This document shows, piece after piece, positions 1 through 21,167 of a stretch of DNA of 32,000 nucleotides; the stretch's first letter is position 1, and the number at the start of each line of letters is the position of its first letter. Both the position numbers and the translations under genes were made by a program. Source of the stretch: Candidatus Saccharimonadota bacterium (GTDB lineage Bacteria; Patescibacteriota; Microgenomatia; UBA1406; GWC2-37-13). Under the pieces are notes generated by a model. It made no database searches. It had not been told where the DNA came from and saw only the letters and a program-made list of their open reading frames with translations. The stretch is from NCBI GenBank assembly GCA_016700135.1, contig CP065004.1, positions 960,001 through 992,000 of the forward strand. The letters are read 5' to 3'.

Positions 1-375
1 CAAACATTTGAAAGGTTCCGGAAAAATATTGAAAATCATAAGAAGGCATTAATTGAGTTGTTAACGACAACCTTGAAAGGGAAATCAGTATATGGGTACG
101 GAGCATCAACAAAAGGAAATGTCATTCTTCAGTATGTCGGATTGACAGGAAAGGACATTCCCTTCATCATGGAAATCAATCCTGATAAATTCGGACGGGT
201 CACACCGGGCACCCATATTCCGATCATATCCGATGAAGAAGTAAGAAGAAAACCGCCTGAGTATTTCCTGGTCCTCCCCTGGCATTTCCGGGACACCATT
301 TTACGGAAAGAAACGTTTTACCGGAAACACGGAACACAATTTATTTTTCCGCTTCCGGAAATTGACATCGTATGA
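1..375 (+). CDS. C-terminal part of a sugar C-methyltransferase-type protein (5' end lies outside the window)
   Basis: Frame 1 is open from base 1: QTFERFRKNIENHKKALIELL precedes the tracked TTG at 58. GKSVYGYGASTKGNVILQYVGL...INPDKFGRVTPGTHIPIISDEE...PEYFLVLPWHFRDTI resembles, from memory, the C-terminal domain of NDP-hexose C-methyltransferases (TylCIII-like, Methyltransf_14). The stop overlaps the next ATG (ATGA at 372-375). Confidence 0.65.
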   Translation, partial: QTFERFRKNIENHKKALIELLTTTLKGKSVYGYGASTKGNVILQYVGLTGKDIPFIMEINPDKFGRVTPGTHIPIISDEEVRRKPPEYFLVLPWHFRDTILRKETFYRKHGTQFIFPLPEIDIV

Positions 376-1040
376 ATATTCCCACACTGCGCGCTGCTTT
401 ACGTGAACTTATCGTTCCCCGGTTGTATCCTCTTTTTGTCAGAAACGGCTCCGATACGTTTGAGTTTCAGGGAAAAACATATCCGTATCTCAGACATCCG
501 CACAATCGGACCTGGGTCAACGAGAGGATCATTGAAGTACCGTTGGGGCTTGATATGCTTGAGCAGTATAAGGGAAAACGGATTCTTGAAGTCGGTAATG
601 TGCTGTCAAATTACACGAAAAGAAATCATGAAGTTCTCGATAAATATGAAGTTGCACCCGGTGTCATGAACGAAGACATTGTTACATTTAATCCCGGTAA
701 AAAATATGATCTGATTCTGTGTATCTCAACTCTGGAGCATGTCGGCTGGGATGAGACACCGCGCGAACCCGATAAAGTTATTGATGCCGTCAGAAATATG
801 AAAAAACTGCTGGCACCGAAGGGATTATTACTCATTACAACTCCTTTCGGATACAACCCGTACCTTGATGTGCTGCTTCTTGAAGAAAAGCTTCCGGTTG
901 ATAAAACCTATTTTCTCGAAAGGAACAATTTTTGGAATGATTGGCATGAAATAAAAATGTCTGAACTATCAAAAACACATTATTCCTGGTCCATCATGCA
1001 TGCAAACACGGTTGGGGTAAGTTATTGCACATCTTCATGA
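372..1040 (+). CDS. putative class I SAM-dependent methyltransferase with a degenerate motif I
   Basis: The 222-aa ORF has KRILEVGNVLSNY in the motif I position (glycine-poor) and YDLILCISTLEHVGWDE as a typical post-motif segment. It is translationally coupled at both ends, with ATGA overlaps at 372-375 and 1037-1040. Confidence 0.5.
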   Translation: MNIPTLRAALRELIVPRLYPLFVRNGSDTFEFQGKTYPYLRHPHNRTWVNERIIEVPLGLDMLEQYKGKRILEVGNVLSNYTKRNHEVLDKYEVAPGVMNEDIVTFNPGKKYDLILCISTLEHVGWDETPREPDKVIDAVRNMKKLLAPKGLLLITTPFGYNPYLDVLLLEEKLPVDKTYFLERNNFWNDWHEIKMSELSKTHYSWSIMHANTVGVSYCTSS

Positions 1041-1963
1041 AACAGATTTCGATCTGTATTCCTACCTATAAACGTCGGGCATTTTTAGAACAGGCACTGT
1101 CCCCCATGCTTGATGAGGTTACAAAATACAAACTCGAATCATCTTTTGAAATCGTCATTTTCAATGACAACGGTCATGATGAAACGGATACCTTTATCCG
1201 TACGTTGCTTCACAAGTACCCTTTTATCACCTATGTTATGCAGAAAAAGCGAAGAGGACTTCGGAAAGCGATCGAATACCTTCCCGAAGTAGCATGCGGG
1301 AAATATATCTGGTTTTTTTCGGATGATGATGTCCCTGTCAAAGGAAGTCTGAAGTACGTGCTGGAGTTAATTCAACAAAAGAAACCGGGCATCATTTTCG
1401 GGAATGTCGATGATTTTAACGGAGAGAAAATCACCAGCCCGAATATGCTGCGGATGGATAAGGATATGGAACTTTCAACCAGAAAAGATTTTTTCCGGTT
1501 CCTCAGTACCAAATTCGGGAGGATTACGTACTTTACGTCATATATCTCAAACTTTATTATCAGGCGGGAACTCTATGAAAAATATTCTGATATTAACGCA
1601 AAATACGATTCCGAATTTAATATGACTCCCCTAGTTATCCCTTTTTTGTATTCGAAAATGGAATGTCCGATTATCATCACTAAAAAACCTATCGTGCTTC
1701 GCCGGACCGGTAATGAAAGCTGGGCTGATCCCGATCCTATCGCTCAAACCCTCAGGTCATATAAAATAAGCGGTTTTCATTTCGGGAATATCCAGAGGCT
1801 TAACTTTTGGGATATTCCGTTTGTACTGCATTTGTATTTCATCGCGCATACGGTGGAAAGGACACTGATTTCGATGGTCATACAAATCCCTTTCGGTCTG
1901 CAGCTAATCAGATTGTATTGGTCTCTTGAGAAGAAGATCTATTCCGTGGTTTTCTCAAAATGA
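1037..1963 (+). CDS. glycosyltransferase family 2 (GT-A fold)
   Basis: N-terminal ISICIPTYKRRAFLEQAL, then FEIVIFNDNGHDETD and a FFSDDDV DxD-type motif. I prefer the ATG at 1037 (ATGA overlap with the upstream stop) over the tracked 1025. Confidence 0.75.
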   Translation: MKQISICIPTYKRRAFLEQALSPMLDEVTKYKLESSFEIVIFNDNGHDETDTFIRTLLHKYPFITYVMQKKRRGLRKAIEYLPEVACGKYIWFFSDDDVPVKGSLKYVLELIQQKKPGIIFGNVDDFNGEKITSPNMLRMDKDMELSTRKDFFRFLSTKFGRITYFTSYISNFIIRRELYEKYSDINAKYDSEFNMTPLVIPFLYSKMECPIIITKKPIVLRRTGNESWADPDPIAQTLRSYKISGFHFGNIQRLNFWDIPFVLHLYFIAHTVERTLISMVIQIPFGLQLIRLYWSLEKKIYSVVFSK

Positions 1964-1983
1964 ATGGATGCTGAAAGACACTA

Positions 1984-2859
1984 TTATTTTAATTCTTCTG
2001 GTCTGAAAGCGAAATATACTGCACGTATCGTTACAGAAGCATGTCCCGGGTCTACCATAAGAAGAATTGCATATGAAATCAGTGCAATCGTAATTCTTAA
2101 GATACGTTCTATTCCGGAGAAATTTTTCAGCACGGTTCTCAAACGGTTTTTCCTGATATCAAATAAGTGGTCGGATTTTAAGACGTGCTTCTTATATGTC
2201 GATGAACCTTTGTGATAAACGAGACTGCTGTAGCAAACCATACATGTTCCTCCGTTTCGCTTTACTCTCAGACTGAGATCGACATCCTCATAATATCCCC
2301 GATACCATTCGTCAAAACCGCCCAGTTTCAGAAAAAATGATCTTTTGATCATGCAGGCAGTTCCGACGGTGTAGTCTACAGTTTTGCTTGTCACTCTCAT
2401 CATAGGTTTATTCCTTCCTATTCCGTATCCGCTTCCCCACCAACGATATTTCCCTCCGCGGTTGTCGACAACAGTCCGTTTATCGGAAAAAAGAATTTGC
2501 GGTTGGATAAATACTTTATTATTTCCCTCACAACACTGAATCAACTCTGAAATCCAATCAGGATCAACCTCCGTGTCATTGTTCAAAAAGATAATATATT
2601 CTCCTTTTGCATGTTTTGCACCGAGGTTGAAACCGCCGGTATAGAACAGGTTTTTTTCTGAACGGATATATGAGATTTGTTTATTTGTGCAGTACTCTTT
2701 CAGTTTGTCCGATGAGTCATTGGTTGAAGCGTTATCAACTACCAGAATGTCGAAATGGGGGTATCGGGTTTTCACGACTGACTGAATACATTTTTTTGTC
2801 AATGCAAATTCGTTGTAATGAAGAATGATGACCGTGATCCGCGGGAATTTTTCAGACAT
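1984..2859 (-). CDS. glycosyltransferase family 2
   Basis: ITVIILHYNEFALTKKCIQSV...ILVVDNASTNDSS...IIFLNNDTEV is a classic GT2 signature. The ATG at 2859 is preceded by GGAGGTG (minus strand AAGGATGGAGGTGGTTTATCC-ATG) and overlaps the upstream stop by 8 nt. The tracked start at 2973 is probably an over-extension. Confidence 0.8.
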   Translation of the reverse strand: MSEKFPRITVIILHYNEFALTKKCIQSVVKTRYPHFDILVVDNASTNDSSDKLKEYCTNKQISYIRSEKNLFYTGGFNLGAKHAKGEYIIFLNNDTEVDPDWISELIQCCEGNNKVFIQPQILFSDKRTVVDNRGGKYRWWGSGYGIGRNKPMMRVTSKTVDYTVGTACMIKRSFFLKLGGFDEWYRGYYEDVDLSLRVKRNGGTCMVCYSSLVYHKGSSTYKKHVLKSDHLFDIRKNRLRTVLKNFSGIERILRITIALISYAILLMVDPGHASVTIRAVYFAFRPEELK

Positions 2860-3835
2860 GGATAAACCACCTCCATCCTTTCTGTAAAAGTTTTCGAAAG
2901 GTGATCTTCCCGAAGACCTGAACGTCTTTTTTTCTGATGATCCGCTGCTTCTTTTCCAGAGTCCGATATCCATTCAACAGATTCCATCCCAGTCCTTTAT
3001 AGATTACAAAAGCCGATTGAAACTCACCTTGAAGAAACAGTTTCATTGAAAGTAAAATCCATCCAAGTATATGCAGCGGGACCATGTAAAGGGCAGTGTT
3101 TATCGGTGCATCTTTCAAAATATAATTCAGATTATTCTTTGATCCTTCAAAATACACCCGCTGTTTGGTTTGAGCTGTCATACTGCTTCTTTGACGGTGA
3201 TATACGACTGATCCCGGCAAGTAATTTATTTCATATCCGCCAAGCCATATGCGCCATGACAAATCCGTATCTTCCCCGTAAATCAAATAATCTTCATCAA
3301 AACCGCCGGCTTCTTCGAATACCTTTTTCCGGACAGCCATTCCTGCGGATTTTGCACCGAAAACCGGTGTAATCTTTCTGAATTTTTCAGGAGCTTCATT
3401 GACACCGAGCTCATACGGAAACCCGAAAATCGTCAAAAAATGGCCGATGCTGTCAAGTTTTTGATCTGATAATCTCAATTCACATTGGACGGCACCTGCC
3501 TGCAGATCCTTCATAAAAAACTTCCGTATTGTATAAAGGGTTTGATCCGTTATCTCCGTATCAACGTCAAGAAAAAACAGAATATCTCCTGATGCTTGTT
3601 GTGCCCCCTCGTTCCGTGACCGGGACGGTCCGATGTTGGTCTCATGAGAAATAAGACTCAGCTGCTTTTGCTTGTACTTTCTGATAAGGGCAGATGTTCT
3701 ATCCGTTGAGCCGTCATCAATCACCATGAGTTGATCCCCCGACAGAAGATTCGGAAGGACGGAATCAATACATTTTTGAATATACTTCTCAGCATTGAAA
3801 CACGGAATGATAATTGAGATATCAGCCTTTGACAT
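2852..3835 (-). CDS. glycosyltransferase family 2
   Basis: ISIIIPCFNAEKYIQKCIDSV...LMVIDDGSTDRTS...FFLDVDTE, with hydrophobic helices at the C-terminus. The tracked start at 3853 is a TTG, and the ATG at 3835 (MSKADISIII) is more natural. It overlaps the stop of the upstream gene at 3822. Confidence 0.8.
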   Translation of the reverse strand: MSKADISIIIPCFNAEKYIQKCIDSVLPNLLSGDQLMVIDDGSTDRTSALIRKYKQKQLSLISHETNIGPSRSRNEGAQQASGDILFFLDVDTEITDQTLYTIRKFFMKDLQAGAVQCELRLSDQKLDSIGHFLTIFGFPYELGVNEAPEKFRKITPVFGAKSAGMAVRKKVFEEAGGFDEDYLIYGEDTDLSWRIWLGGYEINYLPGSVVYHRQRSSMTAQTKQRVYFEGSKNNLNYILKDAPINTALYMVPLHILGWILLSMKLFLQGEFQSAFVIYKGLGWNLLNGYRTLEKKQRIIRKKDVQVFGKITFRKLLQKGWRWFIHV

Positions 3836-4835
3836 ATCGGATTGCTTTGTCAAGATAATGAGTAATAGGTTCCGAATTTCCGACTTTTTTCAGTAAATCT
3901 TCATCGGAGATAATTCGTAACCTTTGAATTTTTTTCCTTTCACGCAGGGTATCCGTGATATTCATAAAGTTCCATAATATACCCTGCACGAGTTCTCCTC
4001 CCGCTCTCAGATCAAACCGAAGCAATATTATGACTGCAAGCACAATCCAGATCCCGACCTGCACAGGTAAAGCATACCAGAGTCTTTTACCCTCAACATT
4101 TTTAATAACTGACCGGATGGTATTCCTGCATCCGCGGTACTTCGGCTGAAGCATGCTGTAATATTTTTTTGTTTTTTCGTAAGTCGGATCATTGTGAAAA
4201 ACGGTGATTGCAGGTTGGTACAGGACAGTGTATCCCGCCAGCCAATTACGGAAACAAAGGTCAGTATCCTCCACCAGCCATTCCATCTTTTCATCAAATC
4301 CTCCGATCCGTTCGAACTGCTTTTTCGGAATGATCATTGCGGCAGATTTTCCCGAAAAAACGAACGCTTCTTTTTCAAACTGGCCGGTATTGATTGCAGC
4401 TTTCGCACGGTCAATCAGAAGATAAAATGGTGTGAGCAATTCTCCCGCACTGTCAAATCTGTTTGAGTGAAAACGGAGAAGTTTGCAGAGCATAATTGCG
4501 TTCGAATTAGTTTTATACAGTTGCGGAACGGTTTCTCCCCAGCCGGGCTGTATTTCGGTATCAGAATCGAGAAAAAACAAATACGTTCCGCTGCTTTTTC
4601 TCACGGCATAGTTGCGTGCTGCGGCAGCTCCTTTTTTTGACTGAAAAGTGTAAAGCGTTATCATTTTCCGTCGTTCATATGTTTTGAGAATTTTCCCGGT
4701 ATCGTCATCTGAGGCATCATCAACCGCAATAATCTCATAGTTTTCCGTTTTTTCCGCAAGCAATGAATCAATGCAGGTTTTGATAAATTGTTCTGCATTT
4801 CTTACTGCGATAATAATTGAAATTTCAGGTTTCAT
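3822..4835 (-). CDS. glycosyltransferase family 2
   Basis: EISIIIAVRNAEQFIKTCIDSL...IIAVDDASDDDTG...LFFLDSDTE, with a C-terminal hydrophobic segment. The ATG at 4835 forms an ATGA overlap with the stop of the upstream gene (4832-4835). The tracked start at 4925 is an over-extension. Confidence 0.8.
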   Translation of the reverse strand: MKPEISIIIAVRNAEQFIKTCIDSLLAEKTENYEIIAVDDASDDDTGKILKTYERRKMITLYTFQSKKGAAAARNYAVRKSSGTYLFFLDSDTEIQPGWGETVPQLYKTNSNAIMLCKLLRFHSNRFDSAGELLTPFYLLIDRAKAAINTGQFEKEAFVFSGKSAAMIIPKKQFERIGGFDEKMEWLVEDTDLCFRNWLAGYTVLYQPAITVFHNDPTYEKTKKYYSMLQPKYRGCRNTIRSVIKNVEGKRLWYALPVQVGIWIVLAVIILLRFDLRAGGELVQGILWNFMNITDTLRERKKIQRLRIISDEDLLKKVGNSEPITHYLDKAIRYVKG

Positions 4836-5800
4836 ATCGGTCGGAATAATCCTACAATACTTCCGGGGATGGCGCCGAGAAGCTCCCGTTTCCCGGTTCT
4901 CATGAAAAGAAATATATAGTAGCAATTCTGTAGTAAAACATTGAAGAGAAACCGTAGTCGGGCTGATGAATCAGTTCTTGAAAGATGTTTTCGATAGAAG
5001 ATAATAAAATTTTGAATACGGTGATATGAGTCGACGCGGACATGAGCTGATTTCTGTACATTGTGAAAGACTTGAGCCTGCGGATTGAATACGTTCGTAT
5101 ACCCGGCTTCAGTGATTTTGCAGGCAACATCTGCTTCATGATATTCGGAAAGTCCCTGAGCAAAGGTGGGATCAAATCCGCCAAACTCTTCAAGAAGTGT
5201 CCGTCGTACGGCAAAGTTACAGGCTTCAAGATTATCAACTGATTTCGGTTCCCCGATTTTTTGAACCGATTCCTCAAAATTGGATCCGAGGGTAAAAGCA
5301 CCGCTACGGGTAAACAGGCTTACTTCCTTCATCTTCCCTTCATAAATAACATCCGTATACAAATACGAAAGAAGCTTCTTCAAAGGATTTGTTGATTTCT
5401 CAAAATCATTCAAAAACGCAAAAAGATCCCGGCCATCCATTAGTTTCTTTTTAATAATCGTGGGACCGGTCACTCCTCCTACCTTTTTATCTTCAAATGA
5501 TGTGAGAATAGCTTTGAGCCAGTTTTTATCAGCCACAATATCATCATCAATTCTGATAAAAATATCATCTTTTGCGTGATTTAAAGCCAGGTTTGCCGCA
5601 TGCAATAATCCCCGTTTCGGCTGAACCAAAAAAAGATAATCTTTGATATATTTTTTCAGAAGTTTTTTAATATGATCGTTGTCCGTGAGTGACACGGCAA
5701 TAACGGAAAAACGCTGATCGGACTGTTCTGACAAACTTTTAAGACAGTTTACCAGTTGTTCAGAATCTCTTGAAATCGGTATGAAGATATTCGCTTTCAT
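4832..5800 (-). CDS. GT2-like glycosyltransferase
   Basis: NIFIPISRDSEQLVNCLKSLSEQSD...IFIRIDDDIVADKNWL has GT-A-like N-terminal topology with a DDD motif. The start forms an ATGA overlap with the upstream gene at 5797-5800. Confidence 0.7.
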   Translation of the reverse strand: MKANIFIPISRDSEQLVNCLKSLSEQSDQRFSVIAVSLTDNDHIKKLLKKYIKDYLFLVQPKRGLLHAANLALNHAKDDIFIRIDDDIVADKNWLKAILTSFEDKKVGGVTGPTIIKKKLMDGRDLFAFLNDFEKSTNPLKKLLSYLYTDVIYEGKMKEVSLFTRSGAFTLGSNFEESVQKIGEPKSVDNLEACNFAVRRTLLEEFGGFDPTFAQGLSEYHEADVACKITEAGYTNVFNPQAQVFHNVQKSAHVRVDSYHRIQNFIIFYRKHLSRTDSSARLRFLFNVLLQNCYYIFLFMRTGKRELLGAIPGSIVGLFRPI

Positions 5801-6936
5801 AAGGCAAGAATGCGAGAATAATAGTTAAAATATTGTACGGCGGTATTCTCAGGATTCCGGCTTTTTGCAAGGTGAATAGTATTTTTGATGAGCATGTCTC
5901 TCAGTTTTCTATCATTGGTAATCATTTCAAATGCATCTGCCCAATGGTTATTATCAATAAGCATGCCGTTTTTCAGATGACTAATGTCTTCTTTCAGGTG
6001 ATCTACATCGGATGCCAAAATACAGGAGTGATATCCTCTTGCCTGATACAAAGGTCCGCTGGAGCCGACATTTATTAATGCAGGATTTATTACTGCATAT
6101 GCTTTTTCGTACAAGAAATCAAGTTCCGATTCGTCAATTATTTCACCGCGAAATTCAATGGCAGGACAGGGAGTAATCAGTTTTTTTATCGATTCAACAT
6201 ATGTTTCCTGACCCCGAATTGTTCCACCTGCAATTATGAACCGGTAGCCGGTATGTTTTTTCTGAAAATCCGAAAAAGCGGAAATCACGGTTTCCAGTCC
6301 TTTTCGCGGTGTGATGTATCCGAAATACAGAAAATACTTCTCAGGATTCCTGTTATGGACTTTCTTTTCGGGAATACATGCCGGAATGACATGGATCTTT
6401 TTTTTAGATACCCGGTATTGTTTTTCAAGTAAATGTACGGCTCTTTCGGTATGACAAACAATACCGTCAGTGGTTAGTCCGATAAACCACAGAATGAAGG
6501 TAAAAAACTTTCTGAGGAAAAACGGTTTTGCGAGAATCGACTTTAGATGAAAGGCAGAAACAAAATCATCGTTCATATTGTCCAAATCCAGGACGGCATG
6601 GATGGTCACAACAACTGGATAACCGAGCATCTTTAAAACGGCAAGAAACAGCGGGAACATGACCGCAGATACTGCTCCTCCGTACATCATAAACTCATGC
6701 TGGAGATGAATAATGTCTGGTTTTGTCTGAAGTATTTTTTTGAGAATCGGAACAAAAAAGAACGGACCTTTTTCCCAAACAGGAAATACGGTTCCGCAGC
6801 CCTGCAGCGTTTTATTTGCCGGATTTTTTTCAGCCGCAACAAAGACCTCTAAGTCGGAATTCCTGGTCAGGGAGTTTGTAAGTATTTGGGTATAATGACC
6901 GAACGGCTGAAGCGTCGAAACAATAAAAACTTTCAT
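5797..6936 (-). CDS. glycosyltransferase, GT-B fold (GT4/GT1 group-1 type)
   Basis: The C-terminal half reads FLYFGYITPRKGLETVISAF...FIIAGG...ELDFLYEKAYAVINPA...GPLYQARGYHSCILASD, which is typical of group-1 glycosyltransferases. It is the first gene of the minus-strand five-gene chain. Confidence 0.75.
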   Translation of the reverse strand: MKVFIVSTLQPFGHYTQILTNSLTRNSDLEVFVAAEKNPANKTLQGCGTVFPVWEKGPFFFVPILKKILQTKPDIIHLQHEFMMYGGAVSAVMFPLFLAVLKMLGYPVVVTIHAVLDLDNMNDDFVSAFHLKSILAKPFFLRKFFTFILWFIGLTTDGIVCHTERAVHLLEKQYRVSKKKIHVIPACIPEKKVHNRNPEKYFLYFGYITPRKGLETVISAFSDFQKKHTGYRFIIAGGTIRGQETYVESIKKLITPCPAIEFRGEIIDESELDFLYEKAYAVINPALINVGSSGPLYQARGYHSCILASDVDHLKEDISHLKNGMLIDNNHWADAFEMITNDRKLRDMLIKNTIHLAKSRNPENTAVQYFNYYSRILAL

Positions 6937-6988
6937 GTGTGGGTTCAGTTATTATACTCCATTTCATATGCGTAGTATAATGATTTCC

Positions 6989-8662
6989 ATGGGCAAAAAA
7001 AAATGGCGCAACAGAGAAAAAAAGATAAAAGAGGATGAAAAACCGAAATCAGAGGAGATGCAGAAAATTGAAAAATACATGTACCCTGCCATTATTACTC
7101 TTCTTGTCCTGATAACATATTTTAACGCATTCAATAACGCATTTGTATCGGACGACATCTATGGTATCGTTAACAATCCGGCGATCGGTCAGTGGAAAAA
7201 TGTGACTTCCCAAATACTTAAATTCTTTCAGCCGCTTCTTTACTTTTTGATTTATCAGATTGATCCCACAAACCCCACATTATTCAGAGTTTTCAACATA
7301 CTTGTTCATATGGGGGTTGCCAACCTTGTTTTCATTTTGGTCAAGCGGTTTGTCAATCCGATGGCTGCGTTTATTGCCGGAGCTTTATTTGCCGTACATC
7401 CGATCCTGGTCGAGTCAGTCTCTTGGATTTCAGGAGGAATTTATTCATGGTATACCTTTTTCTTTTTACTTTCATTCTATTACTATCTCGCAAGGGACCG
7501 TATCACATGGCGATATTACCTTTCCGTTTTTTTCTTCTGGATGTCACTTGTCGTCGGCGTTCCGGCAGTTGTCCTTTCGGGAGTTTTTATCTTGTATGAG
7601 TTGTCATTCGGGAATATTGTCAAAAAATGGATGTGGTCTCTCCCCTATTTTGTCCTGTCCGGCATATATGCCTTCCTCACGCTTAAAGGATACGGGACCC
7701 GGGTCCAATCGCTATCCGCAACCAATAATTCTGCTCCTGAAGTACTCAATCCGATGATACAGGTACCAGTTGCAATTAGTGAATATATCAGACTGTTTTT
7801 GTGGCCGGATTCTCTGACACTGTATCAGTCAGAATTGTCAGCGCCGCCTCTTGAATATACGGTGAGACTGATTGTTTTTCTGACGGTATTCGGTGTGACC
7901 GTTTATTCATTTTTTAAAAATAAACATGTATTTTTCGGGCTTTCGATTTTTTTCCTTGGATTGTTGCCGACTCTTACACCGATTTCCATCGCGTGGGTTG
8001 TTGCGGAGCGGTACGCATATTTCAGTATGATCGGATTGGTATATATTGTCGGATACGGGCTTACACGGATTCATAAACGGTATGACGGCATTGTTTACGG
8101 ACTGCTGGTTCTTGCCATCGTAGCGTTGTCGATCCGCACAATAGTCAGAAACAACGACTGGGACAATGAAGACAATCTTTGGATCGCCACTGTCAAAACG
8201 TCACCTTCGGATCCTAAATCTCACAACAATATGGGTGATGTGTATGCCCGTCACGATGATTTAGAAAATGCCGCCCGGGCATTTAATAATGCCATAAAAC
8301 TCAATCCCGGATATCCGGATGCACACCACAATCTCGGGAATATTTATATGAAGCAGGGAAAAACTGAAGAAGCCGAACAGTTATTTAAAAGAGCCATCGA
8401 ACTCAATCCTGGCCTCTGGCAGCCGCATCAAAATCTCGGAGCAATTTATTACAATCAGGGTAATTATCAAAAAGCGCTAGAAGAAAATTTGACAGTGCTC
8501 AAGATGAATCCCAATCAAGTCAGCGCTTATCTGAATGTCGGAGTGATTTATTTCCAGCTGGGTGAAAAGGAACAGGCACGTAGGTATTTTGAGATAGTTT
8601 TATCAGCCGATCCCAACAACCAAATGGCCCAGCAAGGTATCATTGAATTGAACAAACTCTGA
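6989..8662 (+). CDS. multi-TM GT-C-like glycosyltransferase fused to C-terminal TPR repeats (PMT/TMTC-like)
   Basis: A Lys-rich N-terminus is followed by about 10 hydrophobic helices. The first loop carries NAFVSDDIYGIVNN (DD at 7151-7156). The C-terminus has about four TPR units (NNMGDVYARHDDLENAARAFNNAIKLNPGYPDAHHNLGNIYMKQGK...). I prefer the ATG at 6989 because TATAAT (6976-6981) lies 7 nt upstream. The tracked start at 6935 would overlap the divergent gene's start. Confidence 0.7.
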   Translation: MGKKKWRNREKKIKEDEKPKSEEMQKIEKYMYPAIITLLVLITYFNAFNNAFVSDDIYGIVNNPAIGQWKNVTSQILKFFQPLLYFLIYQIDPTNPTLFRVFNILVHMGVANLVFILVKRFVNPMAAFIAGALFAVHPILVESVSWISGGIYSWYTFFFLLSFYYYLARDRITWRYYLSVFFFWMSLVVGVPAVVLSGVFILYELSFGNIVKKWMWSLPYFVLSGIYAFLTLKGYGTRVQSLSATNNSAPEVLNPMIQVPVAISEYIRLFLWPDSLTLYQSELSAPPLEYTVRLIVFLTVFGVTVYSFFKNKHVFFGLSIFFLGLLPTLTPISIAWVVAERYAYFSMIGLVYIVGYGLTRIHKRYDGIVYGLLVLAIVALSIRTIVRNNDWDNEDNLWIATVKTSPSDPKSHNNMGDVYARHDDLENAARAFNNAIKLNPGYPDAHHNLGNIYMKQGKTEEAEQLFKRAIELNPGLWQPHQNLGAIYYNQGNYQKALEENLTVLKMNPNQVSAYLNVGVIYFQLGEKEQARRYFEIVLSADPNNQMAQQGIIELNKL

Positions 8663-8703
8663 TTGTTGGTATACTGATTATACAATTACATTAGCTCCGC
8701 CTC

Positions 8704-10368
8704 ATGTCACAGATGAAACAAATGTCGGTTGCAATCGGATATCCTCCTCTTTCCTCAAAAAAAGGCGTTCCCCTACTGTCTCAGAACAGGCAGTTTCAGT
8801 ATTTTAATGCTCCCACGTATATTTATCCTATGGTCCCGGCCTATGCTGCTTCCAATCTGAAAAAGCACGGATATCCCGTTTTCTGGATGGACGGCATTGC
8901 CGAAAGAAAGACTGAGACCCAATGGTTTGCGGAACTGAAAGAACATAATCCGGATATTTTCCTTCTCGAAACGAAGTCTCCCGTTGTGAAAAAACACTGG
9001 AAGATCATTGCCAAAATGAAAAAGCTGCTTCCTGACATGAAAATTGTGTTGGTCGGAGACCATCCGAGTTATGTACCTTACGAGCAGTTCGAAAACAGCA
9101 AGGTAGATTATGTCATAAAAGGTGGTGATTATGATTTTGTTTTGGTGAATCTTTTGAATCATCTTGCAAAAGGTGAAAAACTGGAAGGCGGTTTGTACTG
9201 GCGCTCTACTGATAAAAGTATTCAGGCAGACAAGAAAGAAATCCGCAAGCAGAAACTCAAAAACGGCGAAGTAATTTATAATTCAGGACCGCCGTCACTG
9301 AAGCATGACTTAAACAAACTTCCTTTCGTGGATCGGGACCTTACCAAGTGGGAGCTTTATGCCTATGCAAACGGAAATTATAAATATACTCCCGCAACAT
9401 ATATGTACAGCGGAAGGGACTGCTGGTGGAATAAATGCACGTTCTGTGTTTGGGATCATACGATAAATCCGATCGGTTCGTATCGCAGCTTGACTCCGGA
9501 ACGGCTTTTTGCCGAAGTGAAACATGTAGTTGATAATTACGGTGTAAAGGAAATTTTTGATGATGCCGGTACGATGTTTGTCGGAAATAAATTGAAAAAA
9601 TTCTGTGAGCTGATGATCGAGAGCGGCTACAACAAAAAAGTCCGATACGGATGTAATATGAGATTTAATGCCATTCCGAATCAGGAGTTGTATGACCTGA
9701 TGGGAAAAGCAGGTTTCCGGTTCATCCTGTACGGTATGGAATCCGGAAACCAAAAGACGCTGGATCGTCTGGAGAAAGGAACGAAAGAACGCGATGCGAT
9801 CATGGGGCCGGCAATGGCCAGAAAAGCCGGTCTTGATCCGCATGTGACGATCATGCTCGGTTATCCGTGGGAAAGTTACGAAGATGCGAAACGTACCATT
9901 GAGACTGCTAAATTTGCTTTAAAAAAAGGATATTATGAAACCATTCAGGCAACGATCATCATGCCGTATCCCGGCACTCCTCTGTATCGTGAATGTAAAG
10001 AAAATGACTGGCTTCTGACTGATGACTACGAACGGTTTGATATGCGTGAACCGGTGATGAAAATTCCGTTTCCGAAAGAGAAATTACTGGAGCTTGAACA
10101 GGATCTCTACTCTACTTTTATGACACCTCAGTATATCGGACGCAAACTTCTCCGGCTTCGATCGCTGCATGACGTGAAGTATTTGTTTTATATGGCATAC
10201 AAGTTCCTGGGGCATATGCTTGACTTCGATCCGAATCAGACAGAAGTAAAGTTCACATCGCTGAAGTTTTGGCAGAATACCGTCAAACGATTATTCAGTC
10301 ACTTTACTACATCAAAAACGGCTGTTGACGAGGAGAAAGAACGGATTGCGGCAAGTGTGGGAAGATGA
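8704..10368 (+). CDS. B12-binding-domain radical SAM protein (class B-like)
   Basis: The N-terminal Rossmann-like region (IFLLETKSPVVKKHWKIIAKMKKLLPDMKIVLVGDHPS) is typical of cobalamin-binding radical SAM proteins. The cluster motif is CWWNKCTFC at 9421-9447. Downstream elements FILYGMESGNQ and TIMLGYPWE fit a radical SAM core. Alternative ATGs exist at 8713 and 8722. Confidence 0.8.
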   Translation: MSQMKQMSVAIGYPPLSSKKGVPLLSQNRQFQYFNAPTYIYPMVPAYAASNLKKHGYPVFWMDGIAERKTETQWFAELKEHNPDIFLLETKSPVVKKHWKIIAKMKKLLPDMKIVLVGDHPSYVPYEQFENSKVDYVIKGGDYDFVLVNLLNHLAKGEKLEGGLYWRSTDKSIQADKKEIRKQKLKNGEVIYNSGPPSLKHDLNKLPFVDRDLTKWELYAYANGNYKYTPATYMYSGRDCWWNKCTFCVWDHTINPIGSYRSLTPERLFAEVKHVVDNYGVKEIFDDAGTMFVGNKLKKFCELMIESGYNKKVRYGCNMRFNAIPNQELYDLMGKAGFRFILYGMESGNQKTLDRLEKGTKERDAIMGPAMARKAGLDPHVTIMLGYPWESYEDAKRTIETAKFALKKGYYETIQATIIMPYPGTPLYRECKENDWLLTDDYERFDMREPVMKIPFPKEKLLELEQDLYSTFMTPQYIGRKLLRLRSLHDVKYLFYMAYKFLGHMLDFDPNQTEVKFTSLKFWQNTVKRLFSHFTTSKTAVDEEKERIAASVGR

Positions 10369-10430
10369 TTTTTCAGCTCCGAACCTCCCAAGTCGCACAA
10401 AAAATTATATTTTCGCAAGTGCTATGCATC

Positions 10431-11465
10431 TCAGTCTCCATTATTTACTTTAGCGTCCTGGCGGTTTGTTACATTTGTCATTTTCTCTCTCACATACCCC
10501 ACAATAAACCAGAAGCCGTAGGTCACATGCGTGATCGGGATGACGAGTATTGCTCCGAGTGCGATAAGAAGATTTTCCGTCCGCAGATGCGTCTCAAAAA
10601 ATACATATGCTAACAGTCCGCAGTAAAGAAAAAACGGAATTGCAGCTGTGAAAAGATACGGACTTTTCAGTATAAAAAATACAAACAAGACCGCAAGATA
10701 CAAAGTAAAAAAAGCCGGTATGACATACATGAGATGAACCGAGTTTTGATCTCCTTGAGCCGCAAATTTTCCCCTCGTTTTTCCGTAGTTTTTATGCTGT
10801 GCCAGATGACCGGAAAGTGAATCCCTCCTGTGATGAAACACCTGTACGTCAGGGTGATACAAGATAAACTTCTGTTCTTTGACTATGAATTTGTTCAATA
10901 ATTTACTGTCCTCTCCCGGCCAGTGATGATTGTCAAAACCGCCGATACTTGCAAATATTTCTTTCCGAAGCATCAGATTCATTGCCGGATAATCGTCGAC
11001 GAACCGTTTCGGTTGCGGCTGAAAACGGTACACGTATGAGCCGCTTCCTACCCAGGTCCGAAGAACAGCATCAAATATCCTCTCCCAGAATGAGACTTTT
11101 TCTGGAAGTGTCCCGGGTCCTCCCAGTGCGGCAATTTCTGGCTCCTTTTGCAGAATTTTATGTGCCTGAAACAACCATTTCTTTGAAGGATATACGTCGT
11201 CATCGATAAATGCCAACACTTCTCCCTTAGCGTGCTTCGCTGCATAATCACGTTTATCTCCGGGCCTGTTTTTGGCACCGTTAGACAAAATCCGAAGCCA
11301 GGGATACTTCTGTGTTAGTTTCTGATCATCTTGTCCCGTAATATCCGAAACAATGATTACTTCAAATGATGTAAAGGTCTGATTTCCGATTGCAGGGAGT
11401 GTTTCATCGATAAGAATGCCGGATATTTTCCTTGTCGGAATTATTATGGTAAAAAAAAGAGACAT
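10431..11465 (-). CDS. membrane-anchored glycosyltransferase family 2 (GT-A domain plus C-terminal TM helices)
   Basis: FTIIIPTRKISG...FEVIIVSD...VLAFIDDDVYP forms the GT2 core. The last roughly 90 aa are hydrophobic helices (VIPAFFTLYLAVLFVFFIL..., LLIALGAILVIPITHVTYGFWFIVGY). Confidence 0.75.
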   Translation of the reverse strand: MSLFFTIIIPTRKISGILIDETLPAIGNQTFTSFEVIIVSDITGQDDQKLTQKYPWLRILSNGAKNRPGDKRDYAAKHAKGEVLAFIDDDVYPSKKWLFQAHKILQKEPEIAALGGPGTLPEKVSFWERIFDAVLRTWVGSGSYVYRFQPQPKRFVDDYPAMNLMLRKEIFASIGGFDNHHWPGEDSKLLNKFIVKEQKFILYHPDVQVFHHRRDSLSGHLAQHKNYGKTRGKFAAQGDQNSVHLMYVIPAFFTLYLAVLFVFFILKSPYLFTAAIPFFLYCGLLAYVFFETHLRTENLLIALGAILVIPITHVTYGFWFIVGYVREKMTNVTNRQDAKVNNGD

Positions 11466-15290: not shown

Positions 15291-17132
15291 ATGGAACAAA
15301 CCCCCTCTCATACAAAAATAATCGGTCAGATCTTTGACGAAATGACAGGTGCCTTCCAGGAGGAAGTACCTTCCATTTTTCCCCGAAAAGACGTAGATCC
15401 TTATTCAATTTATGAAGAAGGAACACGCTTGGCCGGTGTTGATGTGGTGGATTTACCAGACGGAAGACAGATTCATGTATTCAGCAGTGTTGCAGCTTCA
15501 CCTCATACGCTTTTTCGAGTCCCCTATCAGGATTACGATCTTGATGTGGAAGAAAAAAATGAAGACGGGACAGTGTCTCCCAACCAAAAACGTTTAGAAG
15601 GTTTTAAATCCGTTTTTAAGCGTCATGCTGTTGAAGCGGGATATAGATCCGCTGAACTGGAAGATACACTTGAGAATGAACCGGTTATCATTGAAAAGGA
15701 TGGCCAAAACCAAAGTCCTGAGGCGGTACCTTTGGACATGCTTGTATGGACTATGATCAAAGACACCGACGGAACTCTAAAGCCGATTGATATCAATGAT
15801 TTTGCTTCACCTCTCACAGGAGACCAGCATATCGACAAATTCAGATTACAACTACGTGACGGTAAACTTGAGGAAGTGTACGGTCATGTCATCAAACGTA
15901 TGGATTTGGCAGCAAAAACACTTCTTGAACTTTACAATACGAACGTTCGGGCAGAGATTCCGTTTTTGCCTGAAAAATTTGAGCAGGATCTTCTTCAGGG
16001 AGTGGCCATAGGTTTTTATCGCGGCGATATAACTAAAATGCTCGGGCAATTTAAATTCGACGGATTGGGTAAGGGACCGATGTCGAACTCTTCCACCCAT
16101 TTCCGCACTACAGTCCATCTCGCAATGGACACGATTGATGAATTACGACAACTTCATCACAGAATATCCATGCAGGACGTTATTGATTTTATCCGTTATA
16201 AAGATGTAAACGGCACTCTCACCCGAAGTATCCATTTTGCGGAAAATATCCATATACACGAAACCAAAGACAGCAAAATGAAACGGGCACCCGGTTATAA
16301 ATCAGAGCCTGAGCTTCTCAGAGAACTTATCCAATCTAATAATATACCGCCGATCGAGCTGTTGAAGCTCATTGATCCGTATGCCTCAATTGCGCATGAT
16401 TTGATGTCAGAATGGCTTGCGGAAAAAATCCAGACGGAGTTCGGAGACTATGAAAATACCATTGAACTGTTTGCCCATCATGCAGGTAAAAATGAGCGGG
16501 CAATACGTGCTTCTGAAGGGGTGGAACTTACGCTTGTCTCTCATGAGCCTGAAGTTCGGGAAAAGGCGCTGGCGAGGATTACGCGCATTATCGGTGAATT
16601 TTTCTCACCGATGTGGGAAGATATAAAACTGTATGTACAGGAAAAATTACTAATGTCTCCTGATGAGCAGATTGCAAAGCTGCGGGAAATACAGAATGAA
16701 TACGGTCTTCCTGATAAGGTGATTGTTGCAATACAAAGACTTCTTCCGACAGAAAAACAGATTCAAAACGTTTTTGATTCAACAACCGATGAATCGATGA
16801 AACAAACAATACGATCTATTCAGCAAAAGTATGCACGTCTGAAATCAATTCGGGAAAGTCAGTATGCAGCGTGTAAAGCAAAGATTGATGCAGGACAAGG
16901 TACAACTGAAGATTTAACAAATATGATCAGTGCTCTCCAGACACTCCAACTCTTTAATGACTGGAACGAAGGATACAATATTCCCGGCGTGCCGAGCTTC
17001 GGAATAACATTCCACAAAGATAAAGAAAACAACACTCATGTTTTGCTTGGATGGCTGCTTTCTATGAAAGGACTGGCAGAGCTTTGGCTCGGTGCAATGG
17101 TTATTCGTGAAAAGCGCGATTCAGTCTCATAA
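15291..17132 (+). CDS. hypothetical protein, 613 aa, no recognisable domain
   Basis: A long uninterrupted ORF with protein-like composition and its own extended -10 (TGGTATAAT at 15272-15280). There is no signal peptide and I recognise no catalytic motif. The C-terminus has an amphipathic/hydrophobic segment, VLLGWLLSMKGLAELWLGAMVI. Confidence 0.6.
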   Translation: MEQTPSHTKIIGQIFDEMTGAFQEEVPSIFPRKDVDPYSIYEEGTRLAGVDVVDLPDGRQIHVFSSVAASPHTLFRVPYQDYDLDVEEKNEDGTVSPNQKRLEGFKSVFKRHAVEAGYRSAELEDTLENEPVIIEKDGQNQSPEAVPLDMLVWTMIKDTDGTLKPIDINDFASPLTGDQHIDKFRLQLRDGKLEEVYGHVIKRMDLAAKTLLELYNTNVRAEIPFLPEKFEQDLLQGVAIGFYRGDITKMLGQFKFDGLGKGPMSNSSTHFRTTVHLAMDTIDELRQLHHRISMQDVIDFIRYKDVNGTLTRSIHFAENIHIHETKDSKMKRAPGYKSEPELLRELIQSNNIPPIELLKLIDPYASIAHDLMSEWLAEKIQTEFGDYENTIELFAHHAGKNERAIRASEGVELTLVSHEPEVREKALARITRIIGEFFSPMWEDIKLYVQEKLLMSPDEQIAKLREIQNEYGLPDKVIVAIQRLLPTEKQIQNVFDSTTDESMKQTIRSIQQKYARLKSIRESQYAACKAKIDAGQGTTEDLTNMISALQTLQLFNDWNEGYNIPGVPSFGITFHKDKENNTHVLLGWLLSMKGLAELWLGAMVIREKRDSVS

Positions 17133-19136: not shown

Positions 19137-21167
19137 TTACAAAGCCAATCCGAGGAGGATGAGTACAAACGGTATAAGTACTGCAATCGCTGGATTCATA
19201 CCCGGAGGCTGATCCTCGACTTCCAGTTTGGTCACCGGCGTAGCTGTGGGAGGAGGAGGTACGGGTGTAAATGTCGGTGTCGGCGGAATGGGTGTCGGGG
19301 TAGGAGGCACCGGAGTCGGTGTCGGTGTAAATGACGGTGTAGGTGTCGGTGAATGGGTCGGTGACGGGCTCGGAGTTTCAGAAGGAGAAGGTGACGGTGA
19401 AGGTGTTGGTGTATCTTCCGCCGGCTGTGTCGGTGTCGGAGTAGACTGCGGACAGGTTTGTGTTGCAGGATCGTATCCCGTACTGTTTTCAGAGATGGCA
19501 AAAGCATAACCGCCCGGCCACATTTCACCCGGAGGTACTGTGTTGGATGATTGCACGTTATGACATTCTATCGATTCTACCCCGTTGTTTTCAGTTCTGA
19601 CATCCATCTGGGCAGTCTTACAGGGGGTTTGTTCATACTCAAATGTCATGGATTGTCCGGGCTGCAGGACAATATTCCGCTTTGGCTGGCTGAAGTTTCC
19701 GTCCCATTCTCCCACAAAACAGCTTTCTGCACCGTCAGCGCAGGCGTTATCTCCTCCCTCACAGCGATAACTGCCGCGATACTGTTCTTTCCTTCCTGGT
19801 ACATACGTACATCTGAACAGATCAACTTCGATTTTATCGATAGGTTGTTCCGTACCGTTTTTAATCGTAATTCTATTTGAGTTGTAGGGATCAGGTCCCG
19901 AATCACACTCCAATACGCCGGAACGGTTATCATCATCATCGTCATCGCCTCCTCCGTCAGGAATCGTCATAGTCGGAGGTACGAGTACGATTGATTCATA
20001 GGGCTGGAATGCAATTTGTCTTTGGGCGTCAATAAGGGTAGTTGCACCGCGAATATTCGAATAGGTTTTATAACCTGCATAATTATGTTCAGGCAGCCGG
20101 ACAGTCGGAGTTTCGTCTGACACATTGAGAAGCATACCCATATATTCACCGTTCTTTTCAGTAAGGGTACCCATGATCGGCTTAAAGTTGTACTCAGATA
20201 CAAACGGATTATCCCACGGGTCCCCGTTTCCGCGGAATGCATCCGGCCACACAACTTGAGGACTGACAGCAAGCTGCTTTGCCACCAGTGACATTGTTGT
20301 TTTTTCAGCAACATTCATCGTATCAAAAACACCGCCGTTTACGAACTTTATCGGTGCCTTTTCAGGCTCAGTCTGTACATGGGTCACCATTGCAGAAACG
20401 AGTAATGAAAACCGCTTGATCTGATTCTGTACGATACTGCTCGGCATGGTGATCTCGGATAGTGAAAGCATTGAGTTCGGAGGGTATACTATTTTAGTAC
20501 TCGAATCCCCGCTTATCGATTTTGAAGCATCATACATGGTGTCGAACATTGTTTTGACATAACCCCAAATATTTTCATCACGATTCTCGAATTTGATGCT
20601 GATGGCATTGATAATCGGCGGCGGTGCCCTTTCAAGTAAATCTTTTACCTGTTCTCTTGGCCAGAAGGTAGCGACACCTGCATGAAATAGGATTTTATCG
20701 GGTTTTAATGCCTTTACTTCGTTTGTCTTCGCCACATCAAATGCATTGTAATCCATAAGCTCGACTACTATTTGATCCTGATATTTAGCGTAATAAGCCT
20801 GAACAACCGGAGTCATATTTTCGTAATTTGAGAATGAAAGATACCATTTGAAACCCGCAGTCTGTAAGCTGTCAAATTGGGTGCTTTGTATCATGGCAGC
20901 GGTCGGGTTCTTTATTTTGATGTAGACATTGCCGCCGGGGAAGTAATTTTTAAGCTCCTGAACGGTCGTGTCATTGGTAATATCATTTACCATAACCCCG
21001 AATTTTTGATCTATCGGTCCGCGCTTATCATAAAATTTGAGAGAGATAGTATCGCCTGCCGCTCTTGAGCTTGTCAGCACACGGTACTGCTGTATTGCAA
21101 GTGAAAAGAAGATAACTCCAAGGATAAAAAATGCAATTGAAAACAGTAAATACGCTCGGCGGTGCAT
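19137..21167 (-). CDS. secreted/cell-surface protein A: leader, ~360-aa globular domain, poly-Asp hinge, Cys-containing domain, Pro/Thr/Ser linker, PGMNP motif, C-terminal hydrophobic tail
   Basis: The N-terminus [36 protein letters not shown] has n- and h-regions and an S-R-A site. Also present are DDDDDD at aa 408-413, six or more Cys in aa 420-572, a PT-rich linker at aa ~575-645, and the tail PPGMNPAIAVLIPFVLILLGLAL-stop. TGCTAGACT lies 6 nt upstream of the ATG. Confidence 0.8.
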   Translation of the reverse strand: MHRRAYLLFSIAFFILGVIFFSLAIQQYRVLTSSRAAGDTISLKFYDKRGPIDQKFGVMVNDITNDTTVQELKNYFPGGNVYIKIKNPTAAMIQSTQFDSLQTAGFKWYLSFSNYENMTPVVQAYYAKYQDQIVVELMDYNAFDVAKTNEVKALKPDKILFHAGVATFWPREQVKDLLERAPPPIINAISIKFENRDENIWGYVKTMFDTMYDASKSISGDSSTKIVYPPNSMLSLSEITMPSSIVQNQIKRFSLLVSAMVTHVQTEPEKAPIKFVNGGVFDTMNVAEKTTMSLVAKQLAVSPQVVWPDAFRGNGDPWDNPFVSEYNFKPIMGTLTEKNGEYMGMLLNVSDETPTVRLPEHNYAGYKTYSNIRGATTLIDAQRQIAFQPYESIVLVPPTMTIPDGGGDDDDDDNRSGVLECDSGPDPYNSNRITIKNGTEQPIDKIEVDLFRCTYVPGRKEQYRGSYRCEGGDNACADGAESCFVGEWDGNFSQPKRNIVLQPGQSMTFEYEQTPCKTAQMDVRTENNGVESIECHNVQSSNTVPPGEMWPGGYAFAISENSTGYDPATQTCPQSTPTPTQPAEDTPTPSPSPSPSETPSPSPTHSPTPTPSFTPTPTPVPPTPTPIPPTPTFTPVPPPPTATPVTKLEVEDQPPGMNPAIAVLIPFVLILLGLAL
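19233..19445 (-). repeat. low-complexity Pro/Thr/Ser linker-coding region of protein A
   Basis: It encodes [69 protein letters not shown]. The plus strand is a run of ggtg/ggag/gtcgg-type units and yields Gly/Val-rich shadow ORFs. Confidence 0.85.

Follow-up and report, generated by a model that had tools for sequence, protein, structure and literature searches.

The stretch of DNA considered here, called the window below, is 32,000 nucleotides (nt) long and comes from the genome of a Candidatus Saccharimonadota bacterium (contig CP065004.1, positions 960,001 to 992,000). Its first 11,465 nt carry a block of 11 consecutive genes of the glycan type, which were recognized with a map of open reading frames (ORFs) and Pfam scans and, in the case of one glycosyltransferase (GT) of the GT-C class, by structure. 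This enzyme, in which a membrane domain is followed by tetratricopeptide repeats (TPRs), is termed GT-C+TPR here. GT-C+TPR and the genes around it are the subject of this text. The block had been pointed out in an earlier note made from the letters alone, and the 11 genes were confirmed, with coordinates that are right within the ambiguity of the start codons. Seven genes with glycosyltransferase domains lie within 11 kb, which is far above chance expectation.

The gene block and its GT-C enzyme

The membrane domain of GT-C+TPR is encoded at 6980–8167 on the forward strand (the ORF is open from 6935), and a TPR domain at the C-terminus, with about five repeats, follows at 8168–8662 (TPR_1 and TPR_2, E ~1e-33). 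The membrane domain had no match in Pfam, and sequence searches of the PDB gave nothing useful. Since the domain is invisible to Pfam, its assignment was made by structure. The AlphaFold model of the full protein, built from 113 homologues, had a predicted local distance difference test score (pLDDT) of 93.6, and the AlphaFold2 (AF2) model of the N-terminal 396 residues alone had a pLDDT of 82.1. Foldseek searches with the full-length model were dominated by TPR matches, so the model of the N-terminal domain was used for the fold assignment. Against the PDB, its best match was ArnT (5f15; E 1.6e-4, probability 1.0), followed by STT3, AglB, PglB, AftA, Pmt1, and ALG9. As modelled, the membrane domain is a GT-C fold.

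In the AF2 model, 11 transmembrane (TM) helices are predicted after a Lys/Arg-rich N-terminus, which is cytoplasmic in the inferred topology. Residues D58 and D59 (the DD motif, nt 7151–7156) closely follow TM1, within the first outer loop, and are invariant in the 113 homologues as well as in a set of 16. Likewise invariant in the homologue alignments are E343, R344, Y345, and Y347, which make up an ERYxY motif (nt 8006–8020), and H140, P141, E145, and W149. With 11 helices and the N-terminus inside, the DD pair, the H140–W149 set, the stretch from Y269 to E285, and the E343–Y347 set would all stand on the outer side, the same side as the TPR domain. The TPR domain itself is predicted to face outward, with a topology taken from the 11-helix model, and it is a putative acceptor-binding module. 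In the PDB, it is matched best by other TPR domains, among them the one in OGT.

The relatives of GT-C+TPR comprise at least 771 proteins, which are named at their source as Parcubacteria, Daviesbacteria, Levybacteria, Moranbacteria, or Patescibacteria. Some of them bear the JGI label “protein O-mannosyl-transferase”, and PMT_2 was found in 5 of 16 homologue N-terminal domains. Two metagenome loci (L101 and L131) show two GT-C-labelled ORFs in tandem (GTC> GTC>), which would be a local duplication if these are two genes.

Next to GT-C+TPR, at 8704–10368 on the forward strand, lies the gene of a cytoplasmic B12-binding radical S-adenosylmethionine (SAM) enzyme (PF04055 and PF02310). Its cluster motif is CX4CX2C (RDCWWNKCTFC, nt 9421–9447, residues 240–248), the canonical form being CX3CX2C. 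Among the radical-SAM neighbours that GT-C+TPR has in other loci, 28 of 40 show the pattern RDCWWxxC[ST]FC. In NCBIfam, the enzyme matches HpnJ best (TIGR03471; 147.1 bits, E 7e-43), over nearly its full length. The cut-off of this model is 577.6 bits, and the radical-SAM protein is therefore not a member of HpnJ.

The block ends with a membrane-anchored GT2 enzyme (10431–11465, reverse strand), in which a GT-A domain (PF00535) is followed by 3–4 C-terminal TM helices in the hydropathy profile. Its conserved motifs are FIDDD, WPGED[ST]KL, and HHRR. By sequence, it could not be placed with GtrB, ArnC, or DPMS, as NCBIfam, PDB, and phage collection (tblastn) searches returned only weak generic GT2 matches. 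The matches in the PDB were limited to weak ones to TarS. As a guess, the membrane GT2 is a candidate for the lipid-phosphate glycosyltransferase that primes the pathway.

The other genes of the block lie to the left of GT-C+TPR and were compared with those on a sibling contig (CAZDDM010000005.1, termed L001), which is 93% identical in nucleotides over window positions 1–11,031. The first gene is the 3' part of a C-methyltransferase of the nucleoside diphosphate (NDP)-sugar type (1–375, forward; PF08484, E 1.9e-40). In the sibling, it is full length, with 418 amino acids (aa; L001:8748–10004) and the domains Methyltransf_13, Methyltransf_23, and Methyltransf_14. It is followed on the same strand by a methyltransferase-like gene with a product of 222 aa (372–1040), whose Methyltransf_23 match is marginal (27.6 bits against a cut-off of 27) and whose relatives, at 40–55% identity, are spread across many bacterial and archaeal genomes. 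A soluble GT2 comes next (1025–1963, forward; PF00535, E 4.7e-21).

Four more GT2 genes with PF00535 matches stand on the reverse strand, at 1984–2973 (E 1.1e-31), 2852–3853 (E 1e-28), 3822–4925 (E 3.9e-27), and 4832–5800 (E 4.6e-14), together with a GT4 of the GT-B fold at 5797–6936 (Glycos_transf_1 and Glyco_transf_4). The ORF caller takes the earliest in-frame start, which produces the overlaps at 2852–2973 and 4832–4925, and domains were assigned by the Pfam scans. The true start of the gene at 1984–2973 is probably downstream of 2973, and that of the gene at 3822–4925 is probably downstream of 4925; the sibling ORFs have 291 and 337 aa, respectively. The GT4 gene (start at 6936, reverse) and GT-C+TPR (start at 6980–6989, forward) are divergent, and with about 45–50 bp between their starts, they would have a very compact control region in common.

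Wzx, Wzy, Wzz, an ABC exporter, and a priming transferase were not found among the window ORFs scanned with Pfam, as the earlier note had already remarked.

Recurrence of the module and extent of the locus

When metagenomes were scanned with the GT-C alignment, 345 of 346 stretches were confirmed, and the 80 loci obtained were reduced to 69 clusters after the removal of redundancy at 90% identity. For the neighbour counts, 25 loci were used, each with 6 kb or more on either side, and a gene was counted when it stood no more than eight genes from GT-C+TPR. The labels came from a home-made ORF caller and phmmer comparison with the window and sibling proteins. A GT2 was present in 24 of the 25 loci, and three or more glycosyltransferases were present in 22. 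The B12 radical-SAM gene and the membrane GT2 were each found in 18 loci, a methyltransferase in 17, and a Wzx-like gene in 14. GT4 was less common (6/25). Six of the eight Wzx-like ORFs that were sampled match Polysacc_synt. The usual order is GT2< GT2< GTC> rSAM< memGT2< (GT2<) Wzx<, where GTC is GT-C+TPR, rSAM is the radical-SAM gene, and memGT2 is the membrane GT2.

In the relatives, GT-C+TPR never stands by itself. A relative with 87% identity (L055) is fully syntenic with the window. In a relative with 48% identity (L056), the divergent GT4/GT2/methyltransferase block, the radical-SAM gene, the membrane GT2, and pfkB-ahcY-pyk are kept, and one with 43% identity (L058) keeps the divergent GT2/methyltransferase/GT4 block. 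The core of GT-C+TPR, an HpnJ-like B12 radical-SAM enzyme, the membrane GT2, and Wzx, flanked by soluble GT2 and GT4 enzymes and methyltransferases, recurs across Patescibacteria. No paper that connects Patescibacteria with this combination of genes turned up in literature searches. The window carries a rearranged copy of the core module, in which Wzx has moved to the far side of the glycosyltransferase block.

Wzx can be seen in the sibling. Directly left of the C-methyltransferase, and divergent from it, L001 carries a Wzx/MOP-type flippase (PF01943, Polysacc_synt, 425 aa). The edge of the window thus falls inside the locus, with such a gene just beyond the position of base 1 in the sibling. 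Further left, the sibling has a 292-aa protein with an OmpL47 domain, a Pro/Thr linker, and a C-terminal anchor, then a 686-aa M23 peptidase with a Pro/Thr tail and three genes of no known function. These are followed by two GT2 genes, an epimerase/dehydratase, a GT11, a DegT, a GT10, and a 722-aa GT-C_AftD-like protein. The leftmost part holds an acetyltransferase, a second DegT aminotransferase, and a second epimerase/dehydratase. Two of these products are secreted proteins that bear linkers within the glycan locus. The M23 peptidase (L001 4258–6318, reverse) and the 292-aa protein (6490–7368, reverse) both have an OmpL47-type domain and Pro/Thr-rich stretches, they lie between Wzx and the further GT2 genes, and the same genes occur in a second sibling locus, L062.

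Window positions 1–11,465 are the right-hand part of a larger surface-glycan locus, which measures at least 30 kb in the closest sibling. The self-contained 11.5-kb island of the earlier note has to be given up, since the sibling locus runs at least 20 kb further left and has Wzx directly upstream. That note had also considered a polysaccharide export set upstream of base 1. As read in the sibling, the Wzx flippase and NDP-sugar genes are there, and no Wzy, Wzz, ABC, or priming gene accompanies them. The approximately 20 kb upstream in L001 and L062 contain no Wzy, Wzz, ABC exporter, WaaL/PglL (Wzy_C), LCP ligase, or priming phosphoglycosyltransferase.

The left part of the locus seems less stable than the right. 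The leftmost GT2 of the sibling (L001 542–1501) is 65% identical to its counterpart in the source genome (P0141), against 93% nucleotide identity over the shared 11 kb. This suggests that the left segment may be strain-variable in a serotype-like manner.

The right-hand junction, with pfkB-ahcY-pyk, is conserved synteny. The window has a G+C content (GC) of about 42%, and its housekeeping genes include gyrA/gyrB, L7/L12-L10, lepA, miaA, folD, pyk, and ahcY. A recently acquired genomic island was considered and rejected, with a GC of 0.39–0.435 against 0.38–0.50 in the flanks; recent acquisition is also ruled out by the junctions, which are syntenic in relatives whose GT-C is 48% identical. The adjacent PfkB kinase and ahcY had been proposed to recycle the S-adenosylhomocysteine released by the methyltransferases of the block. 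PfkB was near the module in only 5 of the 25 loci and AhcY in 4 (PK in 5), and no specific coupling to this recycling is therefore apparent. A 613-aa protein encoded at 15291–17132 (forward) has no Pfam or NCBIfam match and no predicted membrane helix. Its place, with pyk on one side and lepA (or the tail proteins described below) on the other, is kept in L055 (618 aa), L072 (624 aa), and L104 (601 aa).

A possible pathway and its acceptor

The reading that we favour, with moderate confidence, is that the locus builds a lipid-linked, methylated surface glycan, that Wzx flips this glycan, and that GT-C+TPR transfers it on the outside, the probable acceptors being Ser/Thr-rich surface proteins. 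The skeleton of this pathway is quite likely to be right. The choice of protein as the acceptor is given somewhat less than an even chance. Gene content, fold, motifs, and conservation were observed; the individual steps are modelled on the logic of lipid-linked glycans and three-component systems (PMC11127046, PMC7389260, PMC12041528).

The pathway would begin at the cytoplasmic face, where the membrane GT2 may load the first sugar onto polyprenyl phosphate. A primer of the GT2 type would account for the missing phosphoglycosyltransferase. The soluble GT2 enzymes and GT4 would then lengthen the glycan, and the SAM-dependent methyltransferases and the radical-SAM enzyme would tailor it. After the Wzx-type protein has flipped the lipid-linked glycan to the outer face, GT-C+TPR, with its DD and ERYxY loops and its TPR domain outside, could pass a sugar or an oligosaccharide to an acceptor that the TPR domain holds. 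With GT-C+TPR in the slot of the last transferase, the missing Wzy and ligase would also be accounted for.

The first argument for a protein as the acceptor is architecture, since GT-C+TPR matches TMTC and TfpW in this respect. The TMTC proteins (family GT105) are eukaryotic protein O-mannosyltransferases with 11 TM helices, a lumenal TPR domain, and the motifs DD and ERxxY (PMC7801869). Both TMTC1-4, which belong to the GT-C/PMT clan, and GT-C+TPR start at the N-terminus with a GT-C domain of about 11 TM helices, which is followed by a non-cytoplasmic C-terminal TPR domain. The likeness extends to the DD in the first outer loop, the ERxxY in the loop before TM10, and “FAVHPI” in TM3. The Arg of the window ERYxY has its counterparts in motif M7 of TMTC (ERxxY) and in PglB R375, which contacts the donor phosphate (PMC7801869). 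However, DUF1736 (PF08409), located in the TM7-TM8 loop of TMTC, was not matched in the window protein or in the 16 homologue N-terminal domains, and the motifs M2 (SHKSYRP) and M4 (KE(T/Q)xxT) are not recognizable in the alignments. At the EL3 position, many homologues have “SEKA”, and the window protein has “VGVP”. GT-C+TPR also differs in being bacterial and in lying in an operon-like block with Wzx, the radical-SAM gene, and many cytoplasmic glycosyltransferases.

TfpW, the D-arabinofuranosyl transferase of Pseudomonas aeruginosa pilin, combines 11 TM helices and a DDX motif with a TPR domain in the periplasm, and its best template is ArnT (bioRxiv 10.1101/2020.04.19.049825). By its published architecture, it shares with GT-C+TPR the cytoplasmic N-terminus, the 11 TM helices, the DDX in an outer loop, the C-terminal TPR domain, and the best matches to ArnT and OGT. 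The genetic setting is different, as tfpW directly follows pilA, whereas the neighbours of GT-C+TPR are the GT4 and the radical-SAM gene. Because DUF1736, SHKSYRP, and KE(T/Q)xxT are lacking, GT-C+TPR is described here as working like TMTC and TfpW and as a member of neither.

The second argument comes from streptococci, in which extracytoplasmic proteins are glycosylated in disordered, Ser/Thr-rich regions by the GT-C enzymes of the pairs GtrB/PgtC2 and PgfS/PgfM1 (PMC12041528). The third argument is that Pro/Thr-linker surface proteins sit inside the sibling locus. The most likely acceptors would be the Ser/Thr-rich linkers of surface proteins generally, which would amount to a general O-glycosylation system.

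The streptococcal pairs belong to a wider scheme of three components, namely a polyprenyl-phosphate GT2, a flippase, and a GT-C enzyme (PMC11127046). As in the Gtr, Arn, CsbB/GtcA/YfhO, GtrB/PgtC2, and PgfS/PgfM1 systems, the membrane GT2, the flippase, and the GT-C gene are co-located and co-conserved here. The present system differs from them in that its flippase is of the Wzx/MOP type and not of the GtrA type, no GtrB, ArnC, or DPMS type can be detected for its membrane GT2, and a radical-SAM enzyme is added. The presence of at least five soluble glycosyltransferases and of methyltransferases suggests an oligosaccharide rather than a single sugar.

The locus resembles the Wzx/Wzy loci and the en bloc systems of PglL/PilO, with which it shares Wzx, several glycosyltransferases, and (in the sibling) genes of NDP-sugar aminotransferases, epimerases, and an acetyltransferase. 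It departs from them through the lack of Wzy, Wzz, WaaL/PglL, and a priming transferase in the window and the approximately 20 kb of the sibling, with GT-C+TPR as the final transferase. ABC-dependent (Wzm/Wzt) loci are different as well, since no ABC transporter domain occurs in the window or in L001/L062. The Agl pathway of Haloferax volcanii is another relevant case: its glycan is built on polyprenol monophosphate, is started by a GT2, is methylated, is flipped by a Wzx-like protein, and is transferred by a GT-C enzyme. Several GT2 genes of the window have weak matches to AglG. The locus is a variation on a known scheme, namely, Wzx-linked, GT-C-terminated extracytoplasmic glycosylation, to which a radical-SAM enzyme and a TMTC/TfpW-like transferase are added.

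Several observations weigh against the favoured reading. Wzx was located in relatives and lies outside the window itself. No match of the membrane GT2 to GtrB, ArnC, or DPMS was found in NCBIfam, the PDB, or the phage collection. The structural matches to ArnT and to the oligosaccharyltransferases are near-equal, so the transfer of a single sugar and transfer en bloc are not separable by them. The TPR region weakly matches the BcsC, PgaA, and PilW models, and TPR domains also accompany polysaccharide machinery. The low identity of the leftmost sibling GT2 to its counterpart and the home-made labels behind the neighbour counts point in the same direction. Finally, three-component GT-C systems commonly decorate glycans and not proteins (PMC11127046, PMC7389260).

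Several of these observations feed the serious rival, in which the acceptor is a wall or surface polysaccharide. The locus would then be an ordinary surface-polysaccharide or wall-glycopolymer locus, where Wzx flips a lipid-linked repeat unit and GT-C+TPR polymerizes it, ligates it to the wall, or decorates a polymer, in the manner of the YfhO, GacL, or Emb GT-C enzymes of Gram-positive walls. This is possible, but we regard it as rather unlikely. Wzx, many glycosyltransferases, and NDP-sugar-tailoring genes, as seen in the sibling, are what such a locus would contain, and the left part seems to vary between strains as serotype loci do (65% protein identity against 93% nucleotide identity elsewhere). 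The weak similarity of the TPR region to polysaccharide-export TPR proteins also fits. Nevertheless, neither the window nor the approximately 20 kb of the sibling yielded a Wzy, a Wzz/PCP, an LCP ligase, a priming transferase, or an ABC exporter, and 11 TM helices with an outward TPR domain are the architecture of the protein-directed TMTC and TfpW.

Surface proteins with a PGx(N/T)P tail

The two secreted Pro/Thr-linker proteins that the earlier note had seen near the block were confirmed, and both are encoded on the reverse strand. The first, with 676 aa (19137–21167), has an N-terminal anchor, a Pro/Thr/Ser linker (nt 19218–19487), and PGMNP followed by a hydrophobic C-terminal tail. Candidatus Roizmanbacteria has the same protein (QQS43504.1, 100% identity), and the source is accordingly a genome of the Patescibacteria. 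The second, with 339 aa (21210–22229), has the same N-terminal anchor, a Pro/Thr linker (nt 21360–21692), and a PGFNP tail, and its relatives are P0131 and P0213-P0224. Both are possible, unproven acceptors of the glycan.

These proteins belong to a narrow family with a conserved N-terminal anchor and a Pro/Thr/Ser linker that always stands ahead of the C-terminal module, and their genes are often in tandem. The tail reads LxVxxQxPGx(N/T)P and continues with about 18 hydrophobic residues that end in LLGL(A/L)L, without a basic tail. A profile of 39 positions found 31 representatives among 1.84 billion proteins, and 30 of them end exactly at the C-terminus. Further members of the family are encoded at L060 2887–8245, L104 18422–21243, and L072 8230–9411. 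An NCBIfam scan of both tails with E values of up to 10 gave no match to a sorting signal, including PGF-CTERM, PEP-CTERM, and LPXTG. Judged from its sequence, the PGx(N/T)P tail looks like an undescribed signal of the sortase or exosortase type. The client of the Haloferax volcanii Agl system, the S-layer glycoprotein, has a Thr-rich region just ahead of PGF and a hydrophobic C-terminal signal. The tails described here differ from that signal in that they have no basic C-terminal cluster and no match to the PGF-CTERM model.

The proximity of these proteins to the glycan genes invites a further alternative, in which the module exists to supply glycan for the adjacent tail proteins. Their linkers are the classic type of substrate for O-glycosylation. 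In the window, in L072, and in L104/L106, tail proteins lie within 10 kb of GT-C+TPR (at a distance of 8–10 kb from the module), and in L002 and L055, both are on one contig. The Cnm and Pgf genes of streptococci are reportedly also neighbours. However, the three close cases all have the same housekeeping order, which can be written as GT-C module-pfkB-ahcY-pyk-X-lepA-[tail proteins]-miaA-folD-gyrA and whose housekeeping part is found in L060 and L061 too. Between the two thus stand five housekeeping genes, namely pfkB, ahcY, pyk, one of unknown function, and lepA, and the whole block is conserved synteny. In a regular-expression scan of all fetched loci, tail-bearing proteins occurred only where this synteny was kept. 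One locus (L143) has a tail protein amid tRNA-synthetase genes, without a nearby glycosyltransferase gene. The proximity, limited to the shared housekeeping order and set beside the case of L143, reflects lineage synteny and is no evidence of a dedicated partnership.

The numbers agree with this view. The module occurs in dozens of lineages without a tail protein within 10 kb, and about 30 tail clusters stand against hundreds for GT-C+TPR. Dedicated supply is therefore improbable, and the tail proteins are plausible clients among many in a general system. The earlier note had proposed to look in relatives for island and tail proteins together, and most module loci have no tail protein nearby. 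Its proposal of a methylated oligosaccharide for transfer to protein has fared better on one side, with a methylating pathway of several glycosyltransferases and a TMTC/TfpW-like GT-C+TPR, than on the other, where the link to the tail proteins comes down to synteny. Overall, that interpretation is partly supported.

Two narrower alternatives were considered. Type IV pilins are abundant in Patescibacteria, and GT-C+TPR might glycosylate them as TfpW does, drawing on a polyprenyl-phosphate donor for the sugars. TfpW has exactly this architecture, with 11 TM helices, the DDX motif, the TPR domain in the periplasm, and ArnT as the best template (bioRxiv 10.1101/2020.04.19.049825), but tfpW directly follows pilA, and no pilin-type Pfam match was present among the window ORFs scanned; we consider this to be a slim chance. 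Even less probable is the tailoring of a membrane glycolipid, in which the membrane GT2 and the radical-SAM enzyme would act as HpnI and HpnJ do, a lipid sugar would be rearranged or methylated, and Wzx would flip the product: HpnJ is the best NCBIfam match (E 7e-43) and the two genes adjoin in most loci, but 147 bits are far under 577.6, the membrane GT2 has no HpnI match, and the conserved GT-C+TPR and the many soluble glycosyltransferases would be left unexplained.

Patescibacteria (the CPR) are tiny, mostly uncultured epibionts, whose surface chemistry presumably mediates attachment to the host. To our knowledge, almost nothing is known about their glycoconjugates. A broader form of the favoured reading, to which we give a low but real probability, is that GT-C+TPR, the CX4CX2C radical-SAM enzyme, the membrane GT2, and Wzx form a general protein O-glycosylation system throughout Patescibacteria. 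In this system, a methylated, lipid-linked glycan that the radical-SAM enzyme has tailored would be passed to Pro/Thr/Ser linkers of surface proteins, and in the present Roizmanbacteria lineage, the clients would include the PGx(N/T)P-tail proteins. If the module does glycosylate proteins, this would be of high interest; if it makes an ordinary wall polysaccharide instead, the result would be routine annotation. The radical-SAM enzyme, with its unusual cluster motif, may perform new sugar chemistry, and GT-C+TPR offers a bacterial model for the poorly understood enzymes of the TMTC type. This widely conserved module, centred on a TMTC/TfpW-like enzyme, is a concrete and testable candidate for surface glycosylation in Patescibacteria.

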